From positions 1 to 46,151 of the forward strand of contig CALHVR010000043.1 of NCBI GenBank assembly GCA_938037005.1: 46,151 bases of DNA, in the 5' to 3' direction. Below, piece after piece: positions 2,214-39,532 of this stretch. Origin of the DNA: an uncultured Leptotrichiaceae bacterium. GTDB taxonomy: Bacteria > Fusobacteriota > Fusobacteriia > Fusobacteriales > Leptotrichiaceae. The notes under the pieces are model-generated. The model was not told the origin of the DNA. It saw only the letters and a program-made list of their open reading frames with translations, and searched no databases. The position numbers were made by a program, and so were the translations under genes. Numbering within the stretch: position 1 is the stretch's first letter; each line of letters begins with the position of its first letter.

Positions 2214-2576
2214 TTATTTTGTATAAGCAATAGCTTCAATTTCTACTAAAGCACCTAATGGTAATTTCCCTACTTCAAAAGCCGATCTTGCTGGATAAGG
2301 TTGTTCAAAATATTGTCCATAAATTTCATTTACTGCCTTAAAATCATCAATATTATCTAATAAAACTAATGTTTTAACTACATTTGACATTGTTAGTCCA
2401 TTATTTTCTAAAATTGCTTTTAAATTTTCTAATGCTTGTCTTGCTTGCTCTTCCACTGTAACACCTTCAATTTTACTTGTTTCAGGATTAATTCCTAGTT
2501 GTCCTGATATATATAAGTAGTCTCCTGCTTGCCTAAAAGCTGAATAAGGACCTACTGCATTCGGTATTTTTTTCAT
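2214..2576 (-). CDS. ridA: RidA/YjgF-family reactive intermediate (enamine/imine) deaminase
   Basis: 120 aa. AVGPYSAFRQAGDYLYISGQLGINP and C-terminal PARSAFEVGKLPLGALVEIEAIA are classic YjgF/RidA signatures. Confidence 0.9.
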   Translation of the reverse strand: MKKIPNAVGPYSAFRQAGDYLYISGQLGINPETSKIEGVTVEEQARQALENLKAILENNGLTMSNVVKTLVLLDNIDDFKAVNEIYGQYFEQPYPARSAFEVGKLPLGALVEIEAIAYTK

Positions 2577-2671
2577 ATTTCCTCCTGTTTTTATTTTAAT
2601 ATAGTCTTATTCTATCATATTTTTTTAATTTTATAAATATTTTTTATAACAAAATTTATATTCAATATTTG

Positions 2672-2699
2672 TTGACTTTTTTATTTTTCAAGTTATACT
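2672..2699 (+). promoter_or_regulatory. sigma70-type promoter of hpf
   Basis: TTGACT (2672..2677), a 16-nt spacer, then TATACT (2694..2699). GAGG RBS ahead of the ATG at 2729. Confidence 0.5.
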
Positions 2700-2728
2700 A
2701 GTAATGAGGTAAGAGAGGACGTGGTTTT

Positions 2729-3043
2729 ATGAAAATTATTATTAGCGGAAAACACTTAAAAATTACGGATGCAATAAAAAATTATACAGAAGAAAAAATT
2801 AATAAAATTTCTAAGTATACGGATGCTATTACAGAAGTTGATGTCGTCTTATCTGTTGAAGATACTAAATCAAGCGGACAAATACATAAAGCAGATGGAC
2901 TAGTTTATGCAAGTGGAACAAAAATAAAAGTAGAAACGGAAAATACTGATTTATATGCTGCAATTGATGAATTAGAAGAAAAACTTGAAAGACAAGTTAG
3001 AAAATATAAAGAAAAACAAAAAGATTTTACAAAAAAAGGTTAA
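2729..3043 (+). CDS. hpf: ribosome hibernation promoting factor / RaiA family (short form)
   Basis: 104 aa. MKIIISGKHLKITDAIKNYTEEKINKISKY is the canonical S30AE/HPF N-terminus. Confidence 0.85.
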   Translation: MKIIISGKHLKITDAIKNYTEEKINKISKYTDAITEVDVVLSVEDTKSSGQIHKADGLVYASGTKIKVETENTDLYAAIDELEEKLERQVRKYKEKQKDFTKKG

Positions 3044-26667: not shown

Positions 26668-29600
26668 CTAGAATACCGCTCTAAATCCAATTCCTCCTCT
26701 TAAATTATTTCCTCTCGTATCATAACCGACATTCAATGTTAATCCAAATCTATTTTTTTCCAATCCAAATTTAAGATCTGCTTTAAAGCTTCCCATTCTA
26801 TCTTCTTTTTCTCTTGCTAAATTATACATATTTGCATCTGTATAAGCTACTTTTGCTTTATTTCTTGAATTATAAACTCTTCCTAATTCTGTCTCATAGC
26901 CTATTCCTGCACTTAAAGTATATTTAAATTCTGAATTTATTTTCTTACTGTATTTCAACTCTGCTCCAATTTCTGGTTTCACTGAAATGTAATGATTTCC
27001 TTTTACTTCTAGTCTCATTTCTCCTTTTTGCTCTTTTATAGTAGTAAATCTTCCGTATTCCACATTTAATGAACCATAAGGCACTAACGATACATGTTCT
27101 GACAATCTATAGTCTTTACTTACTTCATTTCTTACACCTATTCCATAAGTATAATATCTTGATTTCGCTCCAAATATTTCGTCCACATTTTTGTCCATAC
27201 CTCTATCCACAACTAAGTATCGTCTTTCCATGTCGTTCATTCCAACAAATCCATCCAATGAAACTTTCCATTTCAAGCTTCCGTTATTATCATATGCTCT
27301 TGTTTTGAATACTCCTAGTTTTAACATATTTTGATCTTCCACTGATTTTCCAATGTCTTTAAATCTAAATCTGTTGTGAATCAATCCAGCATACCAACCT
27401 GTTTCTTGTCCAAGTTTTATTGTTTCATCTTCATGAACATAAGCCAAACCGTAAGAATTACTTTCAAAGTCTTTTATTCCTGCTGTATCTGTTTTGAATT
27501 CATCTTTCATTCCAAATACTTTAATTTTATTATTTTGTTTTGAAGGATTATACCAATCATTCATTAAGTATCTAAACTCTTTGTCTAATTGTCTTCCTGT
27601 CATATATGTTCTTATTTGTGTATTTGCATATTGGTGACCCATCATTTCATCTACTGCTTGATGGAATAATATTTCCTCATTATTTCCTATACCATTTAAT
27701 TTATTAAATAATAATTTTTCTTTATAACCTCTATCACCAACTTGTTTATCTACTCCATATCTTTTTTCCAATCCATCTAAGAAGTTGTATGTATCTTTTT
27801 TATCTACTGGTGTAGCTTCTTTTCCAGCCCATTCTGTATAAGGAATTTTTGCTAAATATATATTTTCTATAGCTCCAGTATTTTCATCTCGTTTAATACT
27901 TGTCATCCAAGTTAAAGATCCTGAGTAAATACTCCATTTTGCAATTTGAGGGTTATTAATAATTAAATCATTATATGATTTTGTTCCTCCATTTTTTTCG
28001 TTATAAATTTTAGGATCTACTTGTATATATTTACTATTGGTATACTTAGCAGCTTCATTTCCTACTATTAAATCTACTTCTGTTAAATCTTTCAAGTTTT
28101 CAATTCCTTCTATAGGTTTAGTAAAGTCAACATTAGAAGTATCTATATACATTCCCAAAGAATTTACTGTTTTAGCTGTTGCACTTGGAGTTACCAGTTT
28201 ATCTTTTTCTAATTTTTTTATAGTTTCAGGATCTACAGTTACTAAATTAGGTGCTTTAATCGGTTTTTCATTAGGAAGTCTATTATCATAGATTCCTTTT
28301 TCATCTATTTTAACTCCTCCTAATTCTTTATCAAGTTTACTTTTATTTTCATCAAAAGCACTTGAACCTTCTCCACTTACATTGACTATTGGTATTGGCC
28401 CACTTTCTCCTTTAGTATCTGGTTCTTTAATACTTTTTCTTTCAATATCAGAAGCTATATCAAAATCCCCATAGTTTTTAATTATTCCTTTTTTATTTCC
28501 TGCTCCTGCTGCATATATTCCTTTACTATGTTTAGCATTTAATCTGATTTCAGCCCCTCGATGGTTGTATATAGTTGCTCCATTTTTTACAAAGATACCA
28601 ACTAGATTCTCTAAGCCTTCTCCCTCAGATATAATTTTTCCATAGTTATGACCTACAGCTTCATTATCAAGATAAATTCCTGTCGTATTGCTTGCTGATA
28701 AAATTATATCTCCTTTATTTACTAAAGTAGAATTTTTTTCAGTTGCAAACATACCTATAGAATGTTCTCCTGTAACTTTTATTTTTCCTTTATTGACAAT
28801 ATGTCCTGTGAATGGAGTTTTTTCATTTCTTTCCTCTATTGCAGGAGTATATCCTCCAGCCATACCTATAGCATATTTTGTTTCTCTAGGTTTTGTTTTG
28901 TCATATATTGAAGCTCCAACTTCTATAGTCGCATAGTTAGTAGCAATTTTACTTTCATCAGAAGATATACTATAAATACCTACATTTCCTTTCCCATCTT
29001 TGAAATCTATATTTCCATGGTTTTCTATTGTTCCAGCACCATAAATTCCATAGTTTTCATCACCTGTTGCTTTTAAGTGAGTATAATTTGTTACACTTCC
29101 TAATTTATCTTTAGAATATATAAATACTGTGTCACTTCCCAAATGTTTAGTTACTGTTGCTTTTGAAAGTATTGTATTATTACCTTGTTCATTATTATTA
29201 ATAAGTCCATATCCATGGTCTCCAATAGAAATATTTCCTAAAAGATTTATATTTTGTCCACTACCATTAGCATAAATTCCAACAGCTTTATTTGTTCCTA
29301 CATTTAAAGTACTTCCATCTTTTAAAGTTACATCTTTTGAATTAGAGTAAATTCCAACAGCATTGTCAGAAGTTTCTATCTTAGCTCCTGTTTCTAAAGT
29401 AACTCCATGTCCATATATACCGATTGAATTTTTTCCAACTTTTATATTTTTCTTATTTGTTATACCTATTGTAGCTTCTTTAGTATAAATTCCTATATTA
29501 GGATTAGTATCACTATCTGCAGCAGATACATCTATATCTCCTTCGTTCACAACAGAAGTTAAAGTATTTTTATTTGCTACTATTCCATATCCTTTTACTC

Positions 29601-32600
29601 CAACAGTTTTTATGTTTCCTTTGTTAGTAAATGTTCCTGTTCCATTAGCTAAAAGGTTAGTTAATCCACCTGTCGTATTTGTTTCATTATTAATTTCAAC
29701 ATCAATGTTATTAACTAAATCTGTTCCATCAAAAATAACTCCAGTAGCCTTACCTGTATTACTTCCTTTATAATTTAATTTTAATTTTTTCCCTGCTGCT
29801 GCATTAATTGTTGATTTATCTTTCAAGTATATTCCTACACCAGAATCTTTAACATTAATATTAACATCATCTGTAAGTTTAACATCTGAATTTTGAGCAT
29901 AAGTTCCTATTCCTTCTGCTCCCACTGTTATATTTCCAGCTAATTCTATAGTTGCCCCTTCATTATTAGATGCACTAGTTGATTTAACTGATATTCCAGC
30001 TCCTTTATCTCCAAGAACTATATCTCCAACATTTTTAACAAGTAATTTACTTCTATCCTTATCACTGTTATTGTTTACTGATATTCCTATAGAATCTTCT
30101 CCTTTAATATCTATTGTACCTGCATTTAAAATATCTACAGCATTTCCTGTTGCTCCTGCTTTATCTGTTCCAAATGGTACAGTATCACCCGGATTTACTT
30201 TTGATGAGGCATTCGCTGCTATTCCTATACCTTTTTCTGCTACAGTAATAGATCCTTTTGTATCATTTACTAATTTACTTCCATTTGTTCCAAATATTCC
30301 AACTCCTGCATTAGTCATTTCAACTTTATTTTTATTTTCTATTTTTCCATAGTTTACTGACATGGCAGCTGTAGAACTACTTGGGGTTAAAATACCATTT
30401 TCTACTTTTACAAGTCCACTGTTTACAAATCCAGTTTCATCATTAGATGTTGCACTTGCATCAGATTGAATACTTAATCCTTGTCCGCTAAATGTTGTAT
30501 TACTAGCATCTCTTGTAACAGTAACTCCCTCTTTAATATCAACCAATGTTTTTCTTAATGAAATATGATTATATCCATCATCTTTATTATTAATATTAAT
30601 CTCTAAAGTCATTGCCGGAGCTTTAGGTTCTATATTTAAAGTTCCACCTGTTATATAAGATTTAGTCCAAAAATATGCTTCTTCACCATCTTTTTTAACT
30701 GTAACATCTTTAAATAATTGTTTTTCTCCATTATTATCTTTATTAGCTAATATTTTTTTTACATAATCATCAGTACCATTCCATGTCATTGTAACACCTG
30801 TATTATCTATTTGCCCTAGATTGATACCATCTTTTTTAATATTCAATGTTACGTGTTCTTTAAATCCTTGATATTTACTATTAGGTTTATTATAGTCTTT
30901 TACATCAGCTAGATCAATAACTCCATCATAAAGATTGAAAACTGTATTTCCTGTTATTTCAATTTTAGAAGTATTATCTGCATAAACTGGTGCTGTCTTA
31001 TCATATTTTGTTTTATCATCAAAATTATTTTTAACTTCTATAGTTCCTCCACCAAATTTTACAGTACCTCCATTAGTAGCAACTAATCCATTTCCTACTC
31101 CAGCTTTAATTTCACTACCATTTCCTTTAATTTCTACTTCTCCACCATTAGTAGCAGATGCTCCCGTACCATGAATTTTAACATTTCCTGTTATAACTAC
31201 TTTAGATTTTTTTTCAGGGTCAGCACCATCTTTTCCAGAACCACCTTTACCTGATGCATAAGCTCCAATATTATTGTATTTTTCAAGTTTAGTAGCTGTA
31301 TCCTCTGCTGCCCATCCATCTATGGCTTCAATATTTCCATCTATATGAATATCTCCATAGCTTACAGTTTTATGTGCTGCACCTGTATCGTCTTTATAGT
31401 TATGTTCAAATTTATTTGCATAAGCTATTAATGAACCAAATCCATAAGCTTTAGTGTCTTTTGCAGTTATTTTTCCACCTTCAGCCATATATGCTATTGG
31501 TCTTAGCTCAGCATTATTTTCTTTAGCCATTTTTGCTGACATTTCCAAAGGAACACCAAAATTAATTTCAGATTTTTCATCTTTAAGTGCATTTATTGTA
31601 GCTTCACTAATTCCATATTTATTATTACCAAATGTTAATCTTCTTTGTTGAGCTTCACCATCTCCCCAAGTTCCTTTAGCTAATGCTAAAATTGTTCCTG
31701 TTGCAGCTTTATTAGCATTCTCATCAGCTGAACTTATCAATTTATTATCAACATAATCAGATGATTTTACATTATAGTCTTTTATAGCTTCTGTTCTTAT
31801 AGGAACAGTTGCCGCATCTTTTTTACCTGCTACTACATTTCCAGTTCCATCTAAAACTTCCTCTGTATGATGTTTTCCATCTTTTTCTGTTTCTGCTATT
31901 GCTACATCTATTTGAGTTCCTCTTTCAGAATCTATCATAATATTTCTCTTAGAATATTTTCCAAAAGTAGCATCAATATCATTTATATAAAGTGCATGAA
32001 TTGGATCACTTTCTTGAATTTTTCCATCTCCTTTTAAATCTTTTACAACATCTATACCTTTTCTTTGACCTGATTGAGCTAGTACAACCACATTATTTTC
32101 CACAAACTTATCTGAAGTACCACCCATTGCTCCTTTAGCTGTTTGATTTGTTGCAGTAGGCTCTGATGCAAGTTGCTCTCCAATTCTTGCAGAAGGTTTT
32201 ATTTCTCCTTGATGTATTCCTCTTTTTGTAGATTTCCACTCTGGATTATTTATAGCCCCCCAGTTTGTTGTAGTTTCTTTGTAATGTTCTTCTTTGATTT
32301 CTTTTCCATCTATATCTTTACCAGTACTTTTATCTGGAATTAAATCTGCAAAATATAAGATAGTATTATTGTCTCCATATGAATTAACAGCATTATCCAT
32401 TCTTATTACAGGTGTAAGTCCTGTTTGATATACATCTTCTCTTACTCCACTATATTTACCTAGTAATTTTTGCATATTTGGTGTATACCCAAGACCTGAG
32501 TAAAATATATTTCCCGAACCTTCAAAATTAACAGTAGAATTATTAGTAATATTATAACTTCCTGAAATACCAACTAAATTATATATAATATTTCCATTAG

Positions 32601-34170
32601 TTTTAACTTCTGCATTTACTCCTTCTCCTAAATAAGCTCCTCTTTGATCCCTAGCTCTAGAGTCTTCTTCGTTAAACAAAACATAAGCACTTGTTGGTAG
32701 CATATAAAATAAAGTATTTTCATCATTTTTGAAATTCACTTTAACATTTTTAAAATTTAATTTACCAGAATGCCATGATTCAACAGAAAACATTGCAGCT
32801 TTTCCCCATAAATTTCCTTCAATATTCTGGAAAGTTCCATTCCAAACACCGTGTATTCCTATTACACCATTCATTTTTTTACCCTCAACATCTGCTATGC
32901 CCGGCTTTTCAGTTATATCATTTCCATCCTTATCTTTTTCAACATTACCAGCTAAATTAAAAATTTTCTTTTTCCCATCTACAGCTCCGTATATAAATCC
33001 TCCAACTACTGGATTTTTTATATCTTTTTCACTAATTCTTTTATCTTCTGGCATCAAATCATATTCAGCAGTAGTATTTGCTTTCATAAATCCGTTTTTA
33101 ACAAATACCAACGATCCTAACCTTTCTTCGCCTTCCTTTTCATCTACAATAGTTCCATCCGACTTAATTCCACCTGAACTTGCTGTAAATTTTTCGCCAT
33201 TATGTCCTGTCCATAATTTCCCATATGTTGCTCTAAATTCATTACTGCTATCATCTGCATTAGGACTTCCATATAATCCTGGTGATCCTGCTTCTTCACT
33301 ATCATCCCTTTGACTATTTATATTATAATGCTCCCCTTCAAGTTGCTTAAATTCCGTATATCTATAATCAGTAAATGGATTTGTGTTAGGTTGAGGAGTT
33401 TTTACTGTTACTTCTACTTCTTTAGGTATTATTGGATCTGGTGCTGGCACCTCTGGAACATTCAACGGAATATCCACTCCTGCCGGTTCTTTTGTTTCAA
33501 TCTCTTCAACACTAACAGAGTCTCTTCCAACTTCTTTTGGTCTTACTGTTGCATCTATATTAAGACTTGCTATAGGTTCTTGTACTTCTCCCGTACTCGT
33601 TACTCCATAACTATTTAATTGTTTTCCTCCTTTTTTTCTTACACTCGTTATTGCAGAAGTAAGAGAGTTTTTCCCTTCATTTTCTTTTTCTTTTTTTTCT
33701 GTAAACTTTTCATAACTTGAACTCTCTGAAGATATACTTCTTTCATATATATCAGTACTTCTTTCAAAAATTCCTTCATATGGATATTTTTCTTTTTTAT
33801 CTCCTTTTCCTTTATAAGTTCCACTCCATTTATTATGGAAATAATTTATTCCATATTGCCAAGAACTCCAAGGTGATTTTACTACTTGATCTCCTTGTTC
33901 CATTAATTTTATTAATTCTAAATTAGTATCTTTTAATAATTTTTCATTTTCTTTTTTTGCCTTTAAAAATAACTGTTTTACTTCTGTTGTAGTATTTCCT
34001 ATTTCTGTTTTAACTTGTGATATCTTTTTATCTGTTTGAGTTGTTGCAGATAAACTAATCATTCCTGTTAATAAAAATGATATTAAAAGCGCACTTGTAT
34101 AAGTTACACCTTTTACTCTTTTAGCGTAGCTTCTAAGTTGCTTTTCTAACGTCTTTAAAGTATTACCCAT
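26668..34170 (-). CDS. giant type Va autotransporter (Fap2/RadD-like putative adhesin), 2500 aa
   Basis: N-terminus MGNTLKTLEKQLRSYAKRVKGVTYTSALLISFLLTGMISLSA is the extended signal typical of fusobacterial autotransporters. The passenger is rich in G-[IV]-G-I-[YF]-type beta-helix rungs. The C-terminal ~280 aa have alternating-hydrophobic beta strands ending ...GGIGFRAVF, with a terminal aromatic. Confidence 0.9.
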   Translation of the reverse strand: MGNTLKTLEKQLRSYAKRVKGVTYTSALLISFLLTGMISLSATTQTDKKISQVKTEIGNTTTEVKQLFLKAKKENEKLLKDTNLELIKLMEQGDQVVKSPWSSWQYGINYFHNKWSGTYKGKGDKKEKYPYEGIFERSTDIYERSISSESSSYEKFTEKKEKENEGKNSLTSAITSVRKKGGKQLNSYGVTSTGEVQEPIASLNIDATVRPKEVGRDSVSVEEIETKEPAGVDIPLNVPEVPAPDPIIPKEVEVTVKTPQPNTNPFTDYRYTEFKQLEGEHYNINSQRDDSEEAGSPGLYGSPNADDSSNEFRATYGKLWTGHNGEKFTASSGGIKSDGTIVDEKEGEERLGSLVFVKNGFMKANTTAEYDLMPEDKRISEKDIKNPVVGGFIYGAVDGKKKIFNLAGNVEKDKDGNDITEKPGIADVEGKKMNGVIGIHGVWNGTFQNIEGNLWGKAAMFSVESWHSGKLNFKNVKVNFKNDENTLFYMLPTSAYVLFNEEDSRARDQRGAYLGEGVNAEVKTNGNIIYNLVGISGSYNITNNSTVNFEGSGNIFYSGLGYTPNMQKLLGKYSGVREDVYQTGLTPVIRMDNAVNSYGDNNTILYFADLIPDKSTGKDIDGKEIKEEHYKETTTNWGAINNPEWKSTKRGIHQGEIKPSARIGEQLASEPTATNQTAKGAMGGTSDKFVENNVVVLAQSGQRKGIDVVKDLKGDGKIQESDPIHALYINDIDATFGKYSKRNIMIDSERGTQIDVAIAETEKDGKHHTEEVLDGTGNVVAGKKDAATVPIRTEAIKDYNVKSSDYVDNKLISSADENANKAATGTILALAKGTWGDGEAQQRRLTFGNNKYGISEATINALKDEKSEINFGVPLEMSAKMAKENNAELRPIAYMAEGGKITAKDTKAYGFGSLIAYANKFEHNYKDDTGAAHKTVSYGDIHIDGNIEAIDGWAAEDTATKLEKYNNIGAYASGKGGSGKDGADPEKKSKVVITGNVKIHGTGASATNGGEVEIKGNGSEIKAGVGNGLVATNGGTVKFGGGTIEVKNNFDDKTKYDKTAPVYADNTSKIEITGNTVFNLYDGVIDLADVKDYNKPNSKYQGFKEHVTLNIKKDGINLGQIDNTGVTMTWNGTDDYVKKILANKDNNGEKQLFKDVTVKKDGEEAYFWTKSYITGGTLNIEPKAPAMTLEININNKDDGYNHISLRKTLVDIKEGVTVTRDASNTTFSGQGLSIQSDASATSNDETGFVNSGLVKVENGILTPSSSTAAMSVNYGKIENKNKVEMTNAGVGIFGTNGSKLVNDTKGSITVAEKGIGIAANASSKVNPGDTVPFGTDKAGATGNAVDILNAGTIDIKGEDSIGISVNNNSDKDRSKLLVKNVGDIVLGDKGAGISVKSTSASNNEGATIELAGNITVGAEGIGTYAQNSDVKLTDDVNINVKDSGVGIYLKDKSTINAAAGKKLKLNYKGSNTGKATGVIFDGTDLVNNIDVEINNETNTTGGLTNLLANGTGTFTNKGNIKTVGVKGYGIVANKNTLTSVVNEGDIDVSAADSDTNPNIGIYTKEATIGITNKKNIKVGKNSIGIYGHGVTLETGAKIETSDNAVGIYSNSKDVTLKDGSTLNVGTNKAVGIYANGSGQNINLLGNISIGDHGYGLINNNEQGNNTILSKATVTKHLGSDTVFIYSKDKLGSVTNYTHLKATGDENYGIYGAGTIENHGNIDFKDGKGNVGIYSISSDESKIATNYATIEVGASIYDKTKPRETKYAIGMAGGYTPAIEERNEKTPFTGHIVNKGKIKVTGEHSIGMFATEKNSTLVNKGDIILSASNTTGIYLDNEAVGHNYGKIISEGEGLENLVGIFVKNGATIYNHRGAEIRLNAKHSKGIYAAGAGNKKGIIKNYGDFDIASDIERKSIKEPDTKGESGPIPIVNVSGEGSSAFDENKSKLDKELGGVKIDEKGIYDNRLPNEKPIKAPNLVTVDPETIKKLEKDKLVTPSATAKTVNSLGMYIDTSNVDFTKPIEGIENLKDLTEVDLIVGNEAAKYTNSKYIQVDPKIYNEKNGGTKSYNDLIINNPQIAKWSIYSGSLTWMTSIKRDENTGAIENIYLAKIPYTEWAGKEATPVDKKDTYNFLDGLEKRYGVDKQVGDRGYKEKLLFNKLNGIGNNEEILFHQAVDEMMGHQYANTQIRTYMTGRQLDKEFRYLMNDWYNPSKQNNKIKVFGMKDEFKTDTAGIKDFESNSYGLAYVHEDETIKLGQETGWYAGLIHNRFRFKDIGKSVEDQNMLKLGVFKTRAYDNNGSLKWKVSLDGFVGMNDMERRYLVVDRGMDKNVDEIFGAKSRYYTYGIGVRNEVSKDYRLSEHVSLVPYGSLNVEYGRFTTIKEQKGEMRLEVKGNHYISVKPEIGAELKYSKKINSEFKYTLSAGIGYETELGRVYNSRNKAKVAYTDANMYNLAREKEDRMGSFKADLKFGLEKNRFGLTLNVGYDTRGNNLRGGIGFRAVF

Positions 34171-35951: not shown

Positions 35952-36098
35952 ATTTCCTCATTTTTTTATTTTAATTTATTTTTATCATATTATAACTTTA
36001 TTTCTTATATTTTACCACATTATTATTTTTGATTATAGTAAAATATCTATTTTCACATTTATTAAATTTTAATTAAAGTTGTAAAAAACAAATAAAAG

Positions 36099-36170
36099 AG
36101 AGTATATTTTTTGAACTGTATTTCTATATCTGCCCTTTAATGATTTTAAAATACAACTCAAATATACTCT
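36099..36170 (-). terminator. long imperfect inverted repeat, possible terminator after the Sel1-repeat gene
   Basis: AGAGTATATTT (36099..36109) is perfectly complementary to AAATATACTCT (36160..36170). The arms extend inward (GAACTGTA / TACAACTC) with a 3-nt bulge and 2 mismatches. The loop is about 31 nt. On the minus strand it is followed by CUUUUAUUUGUUUUUU. Confidence 0.35.
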
Positions 36171-36213
36171 TCCTAGAAATTTATATCGTTATTATTTTTT
36201 ATTTTATTATTTT

Positions 36214-37027: not shown

Positions 37028-38857
37028 TTACTCCACCGTTACTGATTTTGCCAAGTTTCTTGGTTTATCTACATCATTTCCTTTTAATTTTGATAAATAA
37101 TAAGCAAGTAATTGATGAATTATAATTGATAAAAATCCAGTATAATCATCTTCTACTGCTGGAATATAAAACACTTCATCTGCTACTTCTTCAACAAGTG
37201 TATTCCCTTCTTTTGCTATCGCAATAACAAATGCTCCTCTTGCTGTAACTTCTTTTATATTAGACACTGATTTTTCAAATAAATCTGTTTGAGTTACATT
37301 AATTACAACTGGTACACCATCATCAATTAAAGCAATCGTTCCATGTTTTAATTCTCCTGATGCAAATGCCTCCGAGTGAATGTATGAAATCTCTTTAGAT
37401 TTCAACGCACCTTCAACAGCTATTACATAATCAAGTCCTCTTCCTAAATAAAACATACTATTTTGATCTTTTATTTTATCTGCTACAGCTTCCACTCTAT
37501 CTGCATAAGTTAAAACTTCTTGCACTCCCGCTTTTATTCTATATAATGATTTTATATCTTGTTCATATTGTTCTCTCGTTATTTTTCCAAATTTCATAGC
37601 CATATCTGTCGCTAATAAATATAAAATAACCATTTGAGTTGTGTACGCTTTTGTAGATGCTACTGAAATTTCAGGCCCTGCCCATGTATAAATTACATGA
37701 TCTGCCTCTCTTGCGATTGACGAACCTACAACATTTGTAATTGCAATTACTCTAGCTCCATGTCTTTTAGCTTCTTTCATTGCCTCTAATGTATCCAAAG
37801 TTTCTCCAGATTGACTTAATACAATTACTAGTGTTTTATTATCAATTACAGGATTTCTATATCTAAATTCTGATGCAACCTCAACATCTACTTTTACTCT
37901 TGTTCTTTTTTCAATAATATATTTCCCAACCAGTCCTGCATGATATGCAGTTCCACAGGCAACAATATAAATACTTCCCACACCTTCTAAATACTCTTTT
38001 GTTAATCCTGCATCATCAAAATTAATATTATTATTTTCATCTACTCTACTATTTAATGTTTCTATTAATACTTCAGGCTGTTCGTGTATTTCTTTTTCCA
38101 TAAAATACTCATATCCACCTTTTGAAGCTGCTTCCATATCCCATTCAATATGAGTTACTTCTCTCTCAACTGGTTGCCCTTGTGAGTTCATTATTTTTAC
38201 TGAATCTTTTTTTAATTCAACAATTTCTCCATTTTCAATTAAGTATACATCTCTTGTATATTTTAAAATCGCTGGAATGTCAGAAGCTATAAAGTTTTCT
38301 CCGTTTCCAATCCCTACTATTAATGGACTTTCTTTTCTTACTGCAATTAATCTATCGGGTTCTGAAACTGACATAATTCCCAATGCATAAGCACCTTTAA
38401 TAATTGTCAATAATTTTTTAGTTGCTTCTAGCAAATCTCCTTCATATAATTCCGTTAATAAATGAGCTATAACTTCCGTATCTGTCTCTGACTGGAATTC
38501 ATATCCTTTTTCAATTAATTCTTTTTTCAATTCCAAGTAATTTTCAATAATTCCATTATGAACCACAACTATACTTCTATCTTTATTAAAATGGGGATGT
38601 GAATTTTCATCTGACGGTTTTCCATGAGTTGCCCATCTTGTATGTCCTATAGCCATTGTTCCATGTAAAGGATTTTCAGCTAATACATTTGCTAAATTTT
38701 GCAATCTTCCTACTTTTTTTACAACTGCCAATCCCTTTTCTCCTGTATTTACTGCAATTCCTGCTGAATCATACCCTCTATATTCTAATTTTGATAATCC
38801 GTCAATAACAAAATCTTGGGCATTTTGACTCCCAATATATCCTACTATTCCACACAT
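37028..38857 (-). CDS. glmS: glutamine--fructose-6-phosphate aminotransferase
   Basis: Begins MCGIVGYIG (catalytic Cys2) with AAGGAGAAG upstream and ends ...NLAKSVTVE. The ORF-track extension to 38929 reads through the ribozyme leader. Confidence 0.97.
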   Translation of the reverse strand: MCGIVGYIGSQNAQDFVIDGLSKLEYRGYDSAGIAVNTGEKGLAVVKKVGRLQNLANVLAENPLHGTMAIGHTRWATHGKPSDENSHPHFNKDRSIVVVHNGIIENYLELKKELIEKGYEFQSETDTEVIAHLLTELYEGDLLEATKKLLTIIKGAYALGIMSVSEPDRLIAVRKESPLIVGIGNGENFIASDIPAILKYTRDVYLIENGEIVELKKDSVKIMNSQGQPVEREVTHIEWDMEAASKGGYEYFMEKEIHEQPEVLIETLNSRVDENNNINFDDAGLTKEYLEGVGSIYIVACGTAYHAGLVGKYIIEKRTRVKVDVEVASEFRYRNPVIDNKTLVIVLSQSGETLDTLEAMKEAKRHGARVIAITNVVGSSIAREADHVIYTWAGPEISVASTKAYTTQMVILYLLATDMAMKFGKITREQYEQDIKSLYRIKAGVQEVLTYADRVEAVADKIKDQNSMFYLGRGLDYVIAVEGALKSKEISYIHSEAFASGELKHGTIALIDDGVPVVINVTQTDLFEKSVSNIKEVTARGAFVIAIAKEGNTLVEEVADEVFYIPAVEDDYTGFLSIIIHQLLAYYLSKLKGNDVDKPRNLAKSVTVE

Positions 38858-38884
38858 ATTTTCTTCTCCTTTTAATGTAAATAT

Positions 38885-39056
38885 ACTAGAAAATATCACG
38901 ATAGTACTTTTATTATTACAATTACTCATAAATTTTGTATACTATTTGGGCTGTGATTTCCCAGAAAGTATCCGCCGAAAATCTCGATAACTTTCTCTCC
39001 TCGTCACCCTTAACCGTGAAGGTTAGATTAATTTTTGGTTAAGGGTCTGGCGCTTT
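38885..39056 (-). ncRNA. glmS ribozyme (GlcN6P-dependent self-cleaving leader); the 3' boundary is approximate
   Basis: Minus strand: AGCGCCAGACCC...GGGUGACGAGGAGAGAAAGUUAUCGAGAUUUUCGGCGGAUACUUUCUGGGAAAUCACAGCCC... This matches the conserved AGCGCCAGAAC...GACGAGGA...UUAUCGAA.UUUUCGGCGGAU...AUCACAGCC core, directly upstream of glmS. Confidence 0.9.
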
Positions 39057-39110: not shown

Positions 39111-39146
39111 CTTAATTCCATGTACAAATTTTTGTTTATTCTTCAA

Positions 39147-39272
39147 TTAATTTATTTTAAAAATCACTCCAATCCATATTCTATTTTTCTTTAACGATAC
39201 TTTCTTATCTATCTCATACAAAAATTCAATATATTTTTCATTTAATGTAACTAATAATATTTTTTCTCTCAT
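39147..39272 (-). pseudogene. truncated ToxN/AbiQ-like (type III TA endoribonuclease) gene, 41 codons
   Basis: ATG at 39272 preceded by AAAGGGGAAATT. Translates to MREKILLVTLNEKYIEFLYEIDKKVSLKKNRIWIGVIFKIN*. KYIEFL.E.D.KV and .IGV.FKIN match the remembered N-terminal signatures of ToxN/AbiQ (..KYIEYL.EFD.KV....FIGIVLEI..). Homologues continue for ~130 more residues. No other frame continues the similarity. Confidence 0.6.
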
Positions 39273-39294
39273 AATTTCCCCTTTTATTTTAAAA

Positions 39295-39316
39295 GCTGCC
39301 TCTTTCATGAAGCAGC
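39295..39316 (-). terminator. hairpin terminator between the repeat array and the toxin ORF
   Basis: Minus strand: GCUGCUUC-AUGAAA-GAGGCAGC (one A-C mismatch) followed by UUUUAAAAU. It occupies the position of the toxI/toxN attenuating terminator. Confidence 0.5.
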
Positions 39317-39326
39317 CTTGTTTGAT

Positions 39327-39496
39327 TTCCTATTTATCAGTAATTATTTACTGAAAAGCTAGAACTCGCTCACTCTTATTTTTTCCTATTTTATCAACAA
39401 TCTTTTGTTAAAAAGTCGGAACTTACTTTCTCTTATTCATTTCCTATTTATCAGTAATTATTTACTGAAAAGCTAGAACTCGCTCACTTTTATTTT
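39327..39496 (-). repeat. three tandem 56-58 nt direct repeats; candidate type III antitoxin RNA (toxI-like) array
   Basis: Unit A (39327..39382) and unit C (39441..39496) differ at one position. Unit B (39383..39440) is about 70% identical by eye. Every unit carries a hairpin (A/C: CAGTAA-TTAT-TTACTG; B: AACAA-TCTT-TTGTT). Confidence 0.85.
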
Positions 39497-39503
39497 CGCT
39501 ATA

Positions 39504-39532
39504 ATTTTACCATTTTTTACATTTTTTGTCTA
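39504..39532 (-). promoter_or_regulatory. promoter driving the repeat array
   Basis: Minus strand: TAGACA (39532..39527), a 17-nt spacer, then TAAAAT (39509..39504) preceded by TGg (extended -10). The predicted start site is at the first repeat unit. Confidence 0.5.

Follow-up and report, generated by a model that had tools for sequence, protein, structure and literature searches.

A probable decayed allele of a chromosomal type III toxIN locus upstream of glmS in an oral Leptotrichiaceae bacterium

Analysis of the window, a stretch of 46,151 nucleotides of DNA from an uncultured Leptotrichiaceae bacterium, leads us to conclude with high confidence that the interval 39532-39147 on the minus strand is a chromosomal toxin-antitoxin (TA)/abortive-infection locus of the type III toxIN family, present as a decayed allele in an oral Leptotrichiaceae species and flanked by an endonuclease/exonuclease/phosphatase (EEP)-family gene and the glmS ribozyme. 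No finding spoke against this identification. The locus comprises a promoter-like site, three repeats, a hairpin, a ribosome-binding site (RBS) and a 41-codon open reading frame (ORF). A preliminary description made from the sequence had listed these elements in this order and had read them as a ToxIN/AbiQ-like relic. All of them were located on the minus strand at the coordinates given below, and the reading is borne out by the match of the encoded peptide to the profile PF13958 and by full-length alleles at the same site. With residues 1-41 of 165 left, the window copy is a relic that lacks a full-length, catalytically competent toxin. The family is a known one, in a phylum where toxIN is already common, and the locus constitutes no new class of system; the new details are the path of decay, with repeated toxin loss and a deletion at microhomology, and the dissection of a long ToxI unit.

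The toxN remnant and its full-length alleles

The 41-codon ORF (39147..39272, minus strand; MREK...FKIN) corresponds to codons 1-41 of 165 of toxN, followed by a TAA that results from a frame shift. Two checks that the preliminary description had proposed for its reading, a profile comparison of the peptide and a search for alleles in which these repeats precede a complete toxin gene, both came out in its favor. The peptide matches ToxN_toxin (PF13958; E 3.4e-5, 24.5 bits), the alignment covering positions 3-41 of the 159 in the profile and the score being 0.5 bit under the cut-off of 25 because only a quarter of the domain is left. Exhaustive searching of 1.84 billion representatives with HMMER revealed a 165-aa protein, P0003, that is identical to the remnant over residues 1-41, and two further full-length products, P0005 and P0006, are 98% identical to P0003. 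P0003 matches PF13958 with E 1.6e-35 and 123 bits, and its matches in the PDB are ToxN from B. thuringiensis (4ATO, E 2e-17), ToxN from P. atrosepticum (2XD0, E 9e-14), AbiQ (4GLK, E 5e-8) and ToxN from E. coli (7D8O). Pfam thus gives ToxN_toxin alone and the PDB matches are ToxN and AbiQ alone, which argues against membership in the cptIN or tenpIN families.

With the 41-aa peptide as the query, a word-indexed protein search returned only other truncated copies, tblastn against plasmids gave no match, and phmmer against the PDB placed ToxN at E 0.7-1.4, not significant, among GST noise. A contig scan with the toxin alignment gave no Leptotrichiaceae among the matches listed, only Bacillota relatives of 40-48% identity.

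The full-length genes occupy the same chromosomal site as the remnant. Six syntenic contigs (L003-L008) harbor an identical promoter, array and hairpin in front of a full toxN, and the contigs encoding P0003, P0005 and P0006 share with the window the gene order Wzy-like polymerase, glycosyltransferase, EEP-family gene, toxIN, glmS ribozyme and glmS. A nucleotide alignment shows hardly any difference between the window and the intact alleles over the stretch that runs from the EEP stop codon through promoter, three repeats, hairpin and RBS to codon 41.

Only four of the positions that are invariant in the family, Y14, L18, R31 and G35, are retained in the remnant, while those beyond residue 41 (Y45, F46, A47, P48, S51, P52, K53, K55, H56 and further ones) are lost; because the conserved YFAPxSSPKxKH core is absent, the remnant cannot be an active nuclease. 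S50, S51 and K53 of P0003 align with T52, S53 and K55 of P. atrosepticum ToxN, which are reportedly active-site residues in the 2011 ToxIN structure paper.

The RBS (AAAGGGG, 39278..39284, minus strand, read from the sequence) is located 5 nt before the toxN start codon, and the start 3' of it aligns with the N-termini of ToxN homologues; we therefore place the start at the ATG at 39272, giving a product of 41 aa here and of 165 aa in the intact gene. Gene callers begin the toxin at an upstream ATG in the loop of the hairpin that precedes toxN (39272-39308, minus strand), which yields 53 aa here and 177 aa in the intact gene. The earlier expectation that no ORF-based annotation would display the locus holds for the RNA array, which is unannotated, but not for the ORF, which is called in metagenomes at 41 or 53 aa with a weak PF13958 mark.

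The GlmS protein encoded in the window shares 87% identity with its Pseudoleptotrichia goodfellowii counterpart, the comparison on which the placement of the host is based, and 86% with the one from a Leptotrichia sp., and its nearest matches (96-99%) are proteins from metagenomes or metagenome-assembled genomes (MAGs), some of them from oral samples; the G+C content is 26-30%. Outside the TA locus, and likewise on the minus strand, are the glmS promoter (39110-39082; TTGAAA-17-TATAAT, 11/12 positions), the glmS ribozyme (39065-38890; Rfam RF00234, 85.9 bits, E 5e-20) and the glmS coding sequence, which starts at 38857 with the methionine of MCGIVGY and encodes 609 aa, as in related contigs. 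The longest glmS ORF (633 aa; additional codons at 38858-38929, minus strand) begins inside the ribozyme, the true start being that at 38857. Upstream of glmS in P. goodfellowii the ribozyme is present, with no EEP gene, array or toxin, and the insertion of toxIN at the glmS site is therefore specific to the lineage of the window.

The neighborhood also varies in a second defense-type gene. A 678-aa GmrSD-type (DUF262/DUF1524) gene is present in two of the contigs with intact toxIN (L003 9708-11744 and L007 9672-11708), where it sits between the gene of a 268-aa repeat protein downstream of glmS and a methyltransferase gene, and it is missing from the window (35952-36213) and from L004. A 2500-aa ORF is found at 26668-34170 of the window on the minus strand.

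The toxI array and the fold of its 57-nt unit

The toxI array (39324..39494, minus strand) is composed of three tandem units of 57 nt, R1 (39494-39438), R2 (39437-39381) and R3 (39380-39324). TRF reported a period of 57 nt in 3.0 copies at 39326-39496, and a repeat search found three copies spaced exactly 57 nt apart, with copies 1 and 3 being 97% identical and copy 2 64%. The 47-nt core of the unit is found at two places in the window, both in the array (0 expected in shuffles), and the array, which has no match in Rfam, is the sole long-period array of the 46-kb window. Its 3' end is separated from the toxN start codon by 51 nt on the same strand. Blower et al. 2012 (PMC3401426) give 31-62 nt and 1.9-5.6 copies for toxIN repeats and list many toxIN loci from Fusobacterium and Leptotrichia; the unit length of 57 nt and the three copies found here fall inside these ranges.

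The promoter-like site upstream of the array (39504..39532, minus strand) consists of TAGACA (39532-39527), a 17-nt spacer and the extended -10 element TGgTAAAAT (39512-39504), and in a consensus scan it agrees at 10/12 consensus positions in addition to the extended -10 TG. It had been described as a good extended -10 promoter. The site is present, with its TG, and is invariant in the intact and decayed alleles compared, but the match alone is weak and statistically undistinctive, five promoter-like sites having been found here against 5.2 expected in shuffles. Because such sites are as common in shuffles, the promoter call rests on position and conservation, from which we infer that 39504..39532 is the promoter of the toxIN operon.

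Between toxI and toxN is a 28-nt hairpin (39292..39319, minus strand; AAGGCUGCUUC-AUGAAA-GAGGCAGCUUU) with a predicted fold of 11 bp, -15.9 kcal/mol and z = -4.4, which is invariant in the alleles of this locus bar one G-to-A change in L012-L016 and appears to occupy the place of the partial terminator of toxIN loci. Of the hairpin and U-run originally proposed, the strong hairpin is present, but the U-run 3' of it is short and weak and the terminator scan made no call there. The same scan found no terminator-like site between toxN and the glmS promoter, and we can speculate that transcripts passing the hairpin could enter the glmS leader.

R2 departs from the sequence of the outer units at 36% of its positions, and three helices are kept via compensatory changes: stem 1 (4 bp; GAGC/GCUU in R1 and R3, AAGU/ACUU in R2), an inserted hairpin (6 bp; CAGUAA/UUACUG in R1 and R3, UAACAA/UUGUUG in R2) and a loop-to-tail pairing (UUCU with GGAA in R1 and R3, UUCC with GGAA in R2). 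A pairing test was conducted on nine distinct units from only two loci, the window-type locus and a paralogue with 58-nt units, using controls in which the 3' partners were slid. In stem 1, the pseudoknot helix and the inserted hairpin together, 95.9% of cells pair, compared to 31-59% in the slid controls, a value that slightly understates the pseudoknot pairing since MAFFT misplaced one gap in R2. Compensatory (two-sided) changes are found in four pairs among the nine units, a single one of them in stem 1 and the other three in the inserted hairpin. This covariation, in a small sample from two loci, is supportive of a folded unit.

A survey of ToxN relatives, made by contig scan with the toxin alignment, covered at least 80 loci of 40-48% identity, mostly from Bacillota MAGs. 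Among the matches listed, an upstream array is present at 77 of 80 loci; 73 of these 77 arrays have periods of 34-41 nt and two have a period of 59 nt, while two other listed arrays, with periods of 70 and 77 nt, resemble pairs of diverged short units by their consensus sequences. The canonical 34-nt units (21 units) support a 3-bp stem and a 5-bp loop-to-tail pseudoknot, with helices that covary and in which 93.5% of cells pair, compared to a maximum of 51% in slid controls, and 0/500 shuffles attain the observed score. Common to the 57-nt and canonical units is the order of an A-rich leader, stem 1 with a UUC(C/U) loop, an AUAAA linker and a GGAA tail; the 57-nt unit differs by a hairpin of ~20 nt between the 3' arm of stem 1 and the AUAAA linker. 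The 57-nt unit is accordingly the canonical ToxI core of stem and pseudoknot, decorated with an extra hairpin. The preliminary description had entertained a distinct antitoxin RNA architecture on account of the length of the unit, an idea superseded by the canonical core with its inserted hairpin and by a published repeat range that reaches 62 nt.

The 59-nt units, from L050 and L068, harbor an unrelated hairpin at the same place of insertion, and the position after stem 1 evidently can tolerate extra RNA. In L050, a Bacilli MAG, three of these hairpin-bearing units are located directly before one canonical 34-nt unit, 5' of the ToxN relative (77-275). A different arrangement is seen in L105 (1160-2609; also in L106 and L107), where tandem ToxN-family genes of 166 and 149 aa are located beside phage-type ORF6N/pRha antirepressor genes and the first toxin gene is preceded by alternating 34-nt units with a 68-nt super-period. 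Solved ToxIN complexes are triangular heterohexamers. It is conceivable, though we think it unlikely, that the linker hairpin of the 57-59-nt units had two or more separate origins at one and the same position, in Leptotrichiaceae as well as in the Bacillota loci L050/L068, and altered the geometry or stoichiometry of the ToxIN complex, and that the orphan array is kept as immunity to incoming cognate toxins.

The closest known systems are the ToxIN pairs of B. thuringiensis pAW63 (4ATO) and P. atrosepticum pECA1039 (2XDB/2XD0), which share the toxin family of the intact P0003 and the operon order of promoter, tandem repeats, hairpin and toxin. The stem and the loop-to-3'-tail pseudoknot of the window unit are likewise those of the canonical 34-nt units of relatives. 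In contrast, the units of these two systems are 34 or 36 nt long in 2.9 or 5.5 copies, where the present locus has three units of 57 nt with the inserted hairpin, is chromosomal and from Leptotrichiaceae, and in the window has its toxin cut to 41 codons.

A paralogous toxin, 54% identical, is found in Pseudoleptotrichia (formerly Leptotrichia) goodfellowii (WP_036056107.1; L097-L104); this accession, annotated at NCBI as a type III ToxN/AbiQ toxin, is contained in the 90% cluster of the paralogue P0010. The P. goodfellowii-type array consists of 1.8-2.8 units of 58 nt that are laid out in the same way, extra hairpin included, and a hairpin and an RBS come after it, but it is located at another chromosomal site (radical SAM gene/pyrB), its unit sequence is different and its toxin is intact. 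Between L097 and L098 (about 2740-2940) the array varies from 1.8 to 2.8 units of 58 nt with an intact toxin, and loci that still work are therefore polymorphic in the number of their units too. The paralogue in L098 is located near cas1/cas2. Four toxIN loci are listed for L. goodfellowii (PMC3401426).

AbiQ/antiQ from Lactococcus lactis pSRQ900 (4GLK) is an abortive-infection type III pair with a homologous toxin and upstream repeats, AbiQ being more distant from the toxin of this locus and plasmid-borne. The antiQ units are short, about 35 nt. CptIN and TenpIN follow the same logic, a tandem RNA repeat antitoxin with an endoribonuclease, but their toxins belong to different sequence families; their repeats are longer, given as 40-48 nt for CptIN and 39-57 nt for TenpIN (PMC3401426).

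Lesions in toxN

Alignment with the intact alleles revealed that the window lacks 361 bp after codon 41 and rejoins the gene 14 bp before the toxN stop, the deleted part being codons 42 to about 160. At the deletion junction (39150..39158, minus strand) a single copy of AAAATAAAT is left, where the intact alleles have two, at gene offsets 114 and 475. As 361 cannot be divided by three, the reading frame is shifted and runs directly into a TAA. The 3' remnant of toxN (39136..39149, minus strand) is out of frame; its sequence, ..TTA ATT GAA GAA TAA, is that of the L I E E stop of the intact gene and matches the final codons and stop of L007, L008 and L010, and the AAA (K) codon before L I E E falls in the junction repeat (39152-39150).

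The same deletion is present in at least eight independent assemblies (the window, L001, L002, L013-L016 and L132, the last being a 1.6-Mb metagenome contig of the same species). The deletion haplotype of the window, L001 and L002 reads ..TTTAAAATAAAT|TAATTGAAGAATAAAC, and that of L013-L016 and L132 reads ..TTTGAAATAAAT|TAATTGAAAAATAAAT; the bases that vary beside the junction (5 nt on its left, 9 nt on its right) agree with those of two different full-length haplotypes, one L010-like and one L003-like. We favor two independent deletions at the same microhomology as the likely origin. L001 is a mosaic, L003-like upstream and window-like from about codon 11 on, and recombination is clearly active among the alleles, so that a single deletion may also underlie both haplotypes. 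With ~20 other repeats of at least 9 nt in the gene, the AAAATAAAT pair is not uniquely predisposed to deletion. In L132, extra A/T in homopolymer runs (2380-3000) break the EEP and glmS frames and resemble uncorrected long-read error.

Other alleles carry other lesions. Codon 109 is changed from CAG to TAG (Q109*) in the full-length genes of L010 and L011, and codon 111 from CAA to TAA (Q111*) in that of L012; the 90% cluster also contains P0031, which is without the N-terminus (four contigs), and P0033, which stops after residue 122. The toxN gene has thus been lost repeatedly while toxI stays. Intact products dominate the contig counts, P0029 alone being found in 85 against ~16 contigs with truncated products, although such counts cannot be treated as independent samples. 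Over promoter, array and hairpin there is no difference between the window and L010, which has the Q109* allele, and thus the deletion may have hit an already dead gene. The toxin-dead L011 and L015 have a single R1/R3 fusion unit, while the intact alleles have three units in 6/6 cases; the one-unit arrays could reflect relaxed constraint or assembly collapse, in numbers too small to separate the two.

Present state of the locus and alternative readings

In the intact allele, one promoter would drive the three 57-nt toxI repeats, the hairpin and the 165-aa ToxN endoribonuclease. On the analogy of ToxIN complexes of solved structure, the transcript of the repeats would be cleaved by ToxN into its individual units, each of which would fold into a pseudoknot, bind ToxN and silence it; upon phage infection the labile RNA would presumably be lost and ToxN would kill the cell. 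To our knowledge, a decaying TA pair can tolerate only the toxin being lost first, and the antitoxin is consequently left orphaned. In the window, the 361-bp deletion between the copies of AAAATAAAT has left the promoter, array, hairpin, RBS and 41 codons, and by the same analogy the orphan array is probably still transcribed, unprocessed, partnerless and without function. The relic array is almost identical to the arrays of the intact alleles, which fits recent decay but would also be compatible with selection keeping the RNA.

Preservation of the orphan array for a function, either the neutralization of a related ToxN that is encoded elsewhere or arrives via plasmid or phage (anti-addiction) or a role as a small RNA of its own, is in our judgment distinctly unlikely. 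Consistent with such a function, the window and most toxin-dead alleles have kept the promoter, three units and hairpin whole, and the toxin-dead alleles stand on several haplotype backgrounds and are spread by recombination. However, a recent deletion equally predicts near-identity to the intact alleles, and the single unit in the toxin-dead L011 and L015, against 0/6 intact alleles, hints at relaxed constraint, with collapse being possible. Without ToxN, moreover, the precursor would not be cut into units, there is no second ToxN gene in the 46-kb window, and the ToxN relatives of six viral contigs are only 40-43% identical and have units of 38-39 nt.

A function for the 41-aa peptide as a small protein in its own right, such as an RNA-binding or dominant-negative fragment, is very improbable. 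The RBS and start codon are kept and the peptide is 98-100% conserved among the deletion alleles, but its stop codon is the product of the frame shift at the junction, and a piece of 41 residues, out of the 165 that make up a single-domain fold, is unlikely to fold; the lesions of other strains at residues 108, 110 and 122, together with N-terminal loss, indicate that no fragment is favored.

The preliminary description had itself considered that the repeat might be a dispersed MITE. A MITE-like element or a part of the glmS leader, with the resemblance to ToxN due to chance, would suit an AT-rich intergenic region directly upstream of the glmS ribozyme, but there is next to nothing left in its favor. 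The array is unique in the window and matches nothing in Rfam, and the glmS gene of P. goodfellowii has the ribozyme with neither array nor toxin upstream. Pattern scans reached only the same locus: a degenerate two-unit pattern had 88 matches in metagenomes, 87 by chance and one real (L132), and one chance match and no real one in viral contigs. The dispersed-repeat or glmS-leader reading is refuted by this metagenome scan and by the intact alleles, in which a full toxN lies between the array and glmS. An assembly artefact in the window, to which an AT-rich, repetitive sequence might give rise, can hardly account for the deletion, as the same junction is found in contigs of at least five other studies or assemblers, one of them 1.6 Mb long, and with two flanking haplotypes.

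Taken as a decayed toxIN allele, the locus would provide a clean natural example of type III TA decay, in which the toxin is lost first, through several independent lesions within one species, and in which the RNA antitoxin, promoter and hairpin persist as an unannotated orphan after toxin loss. It also holds a caution for annotators, in that tiny ORFs with upstream tandem repeats can be TA relics. Lastly, the hairpin-bearing long ToxI unit constitutes a testable variant for establishing how much extra RNA the assembly of ToxIN tolerates.
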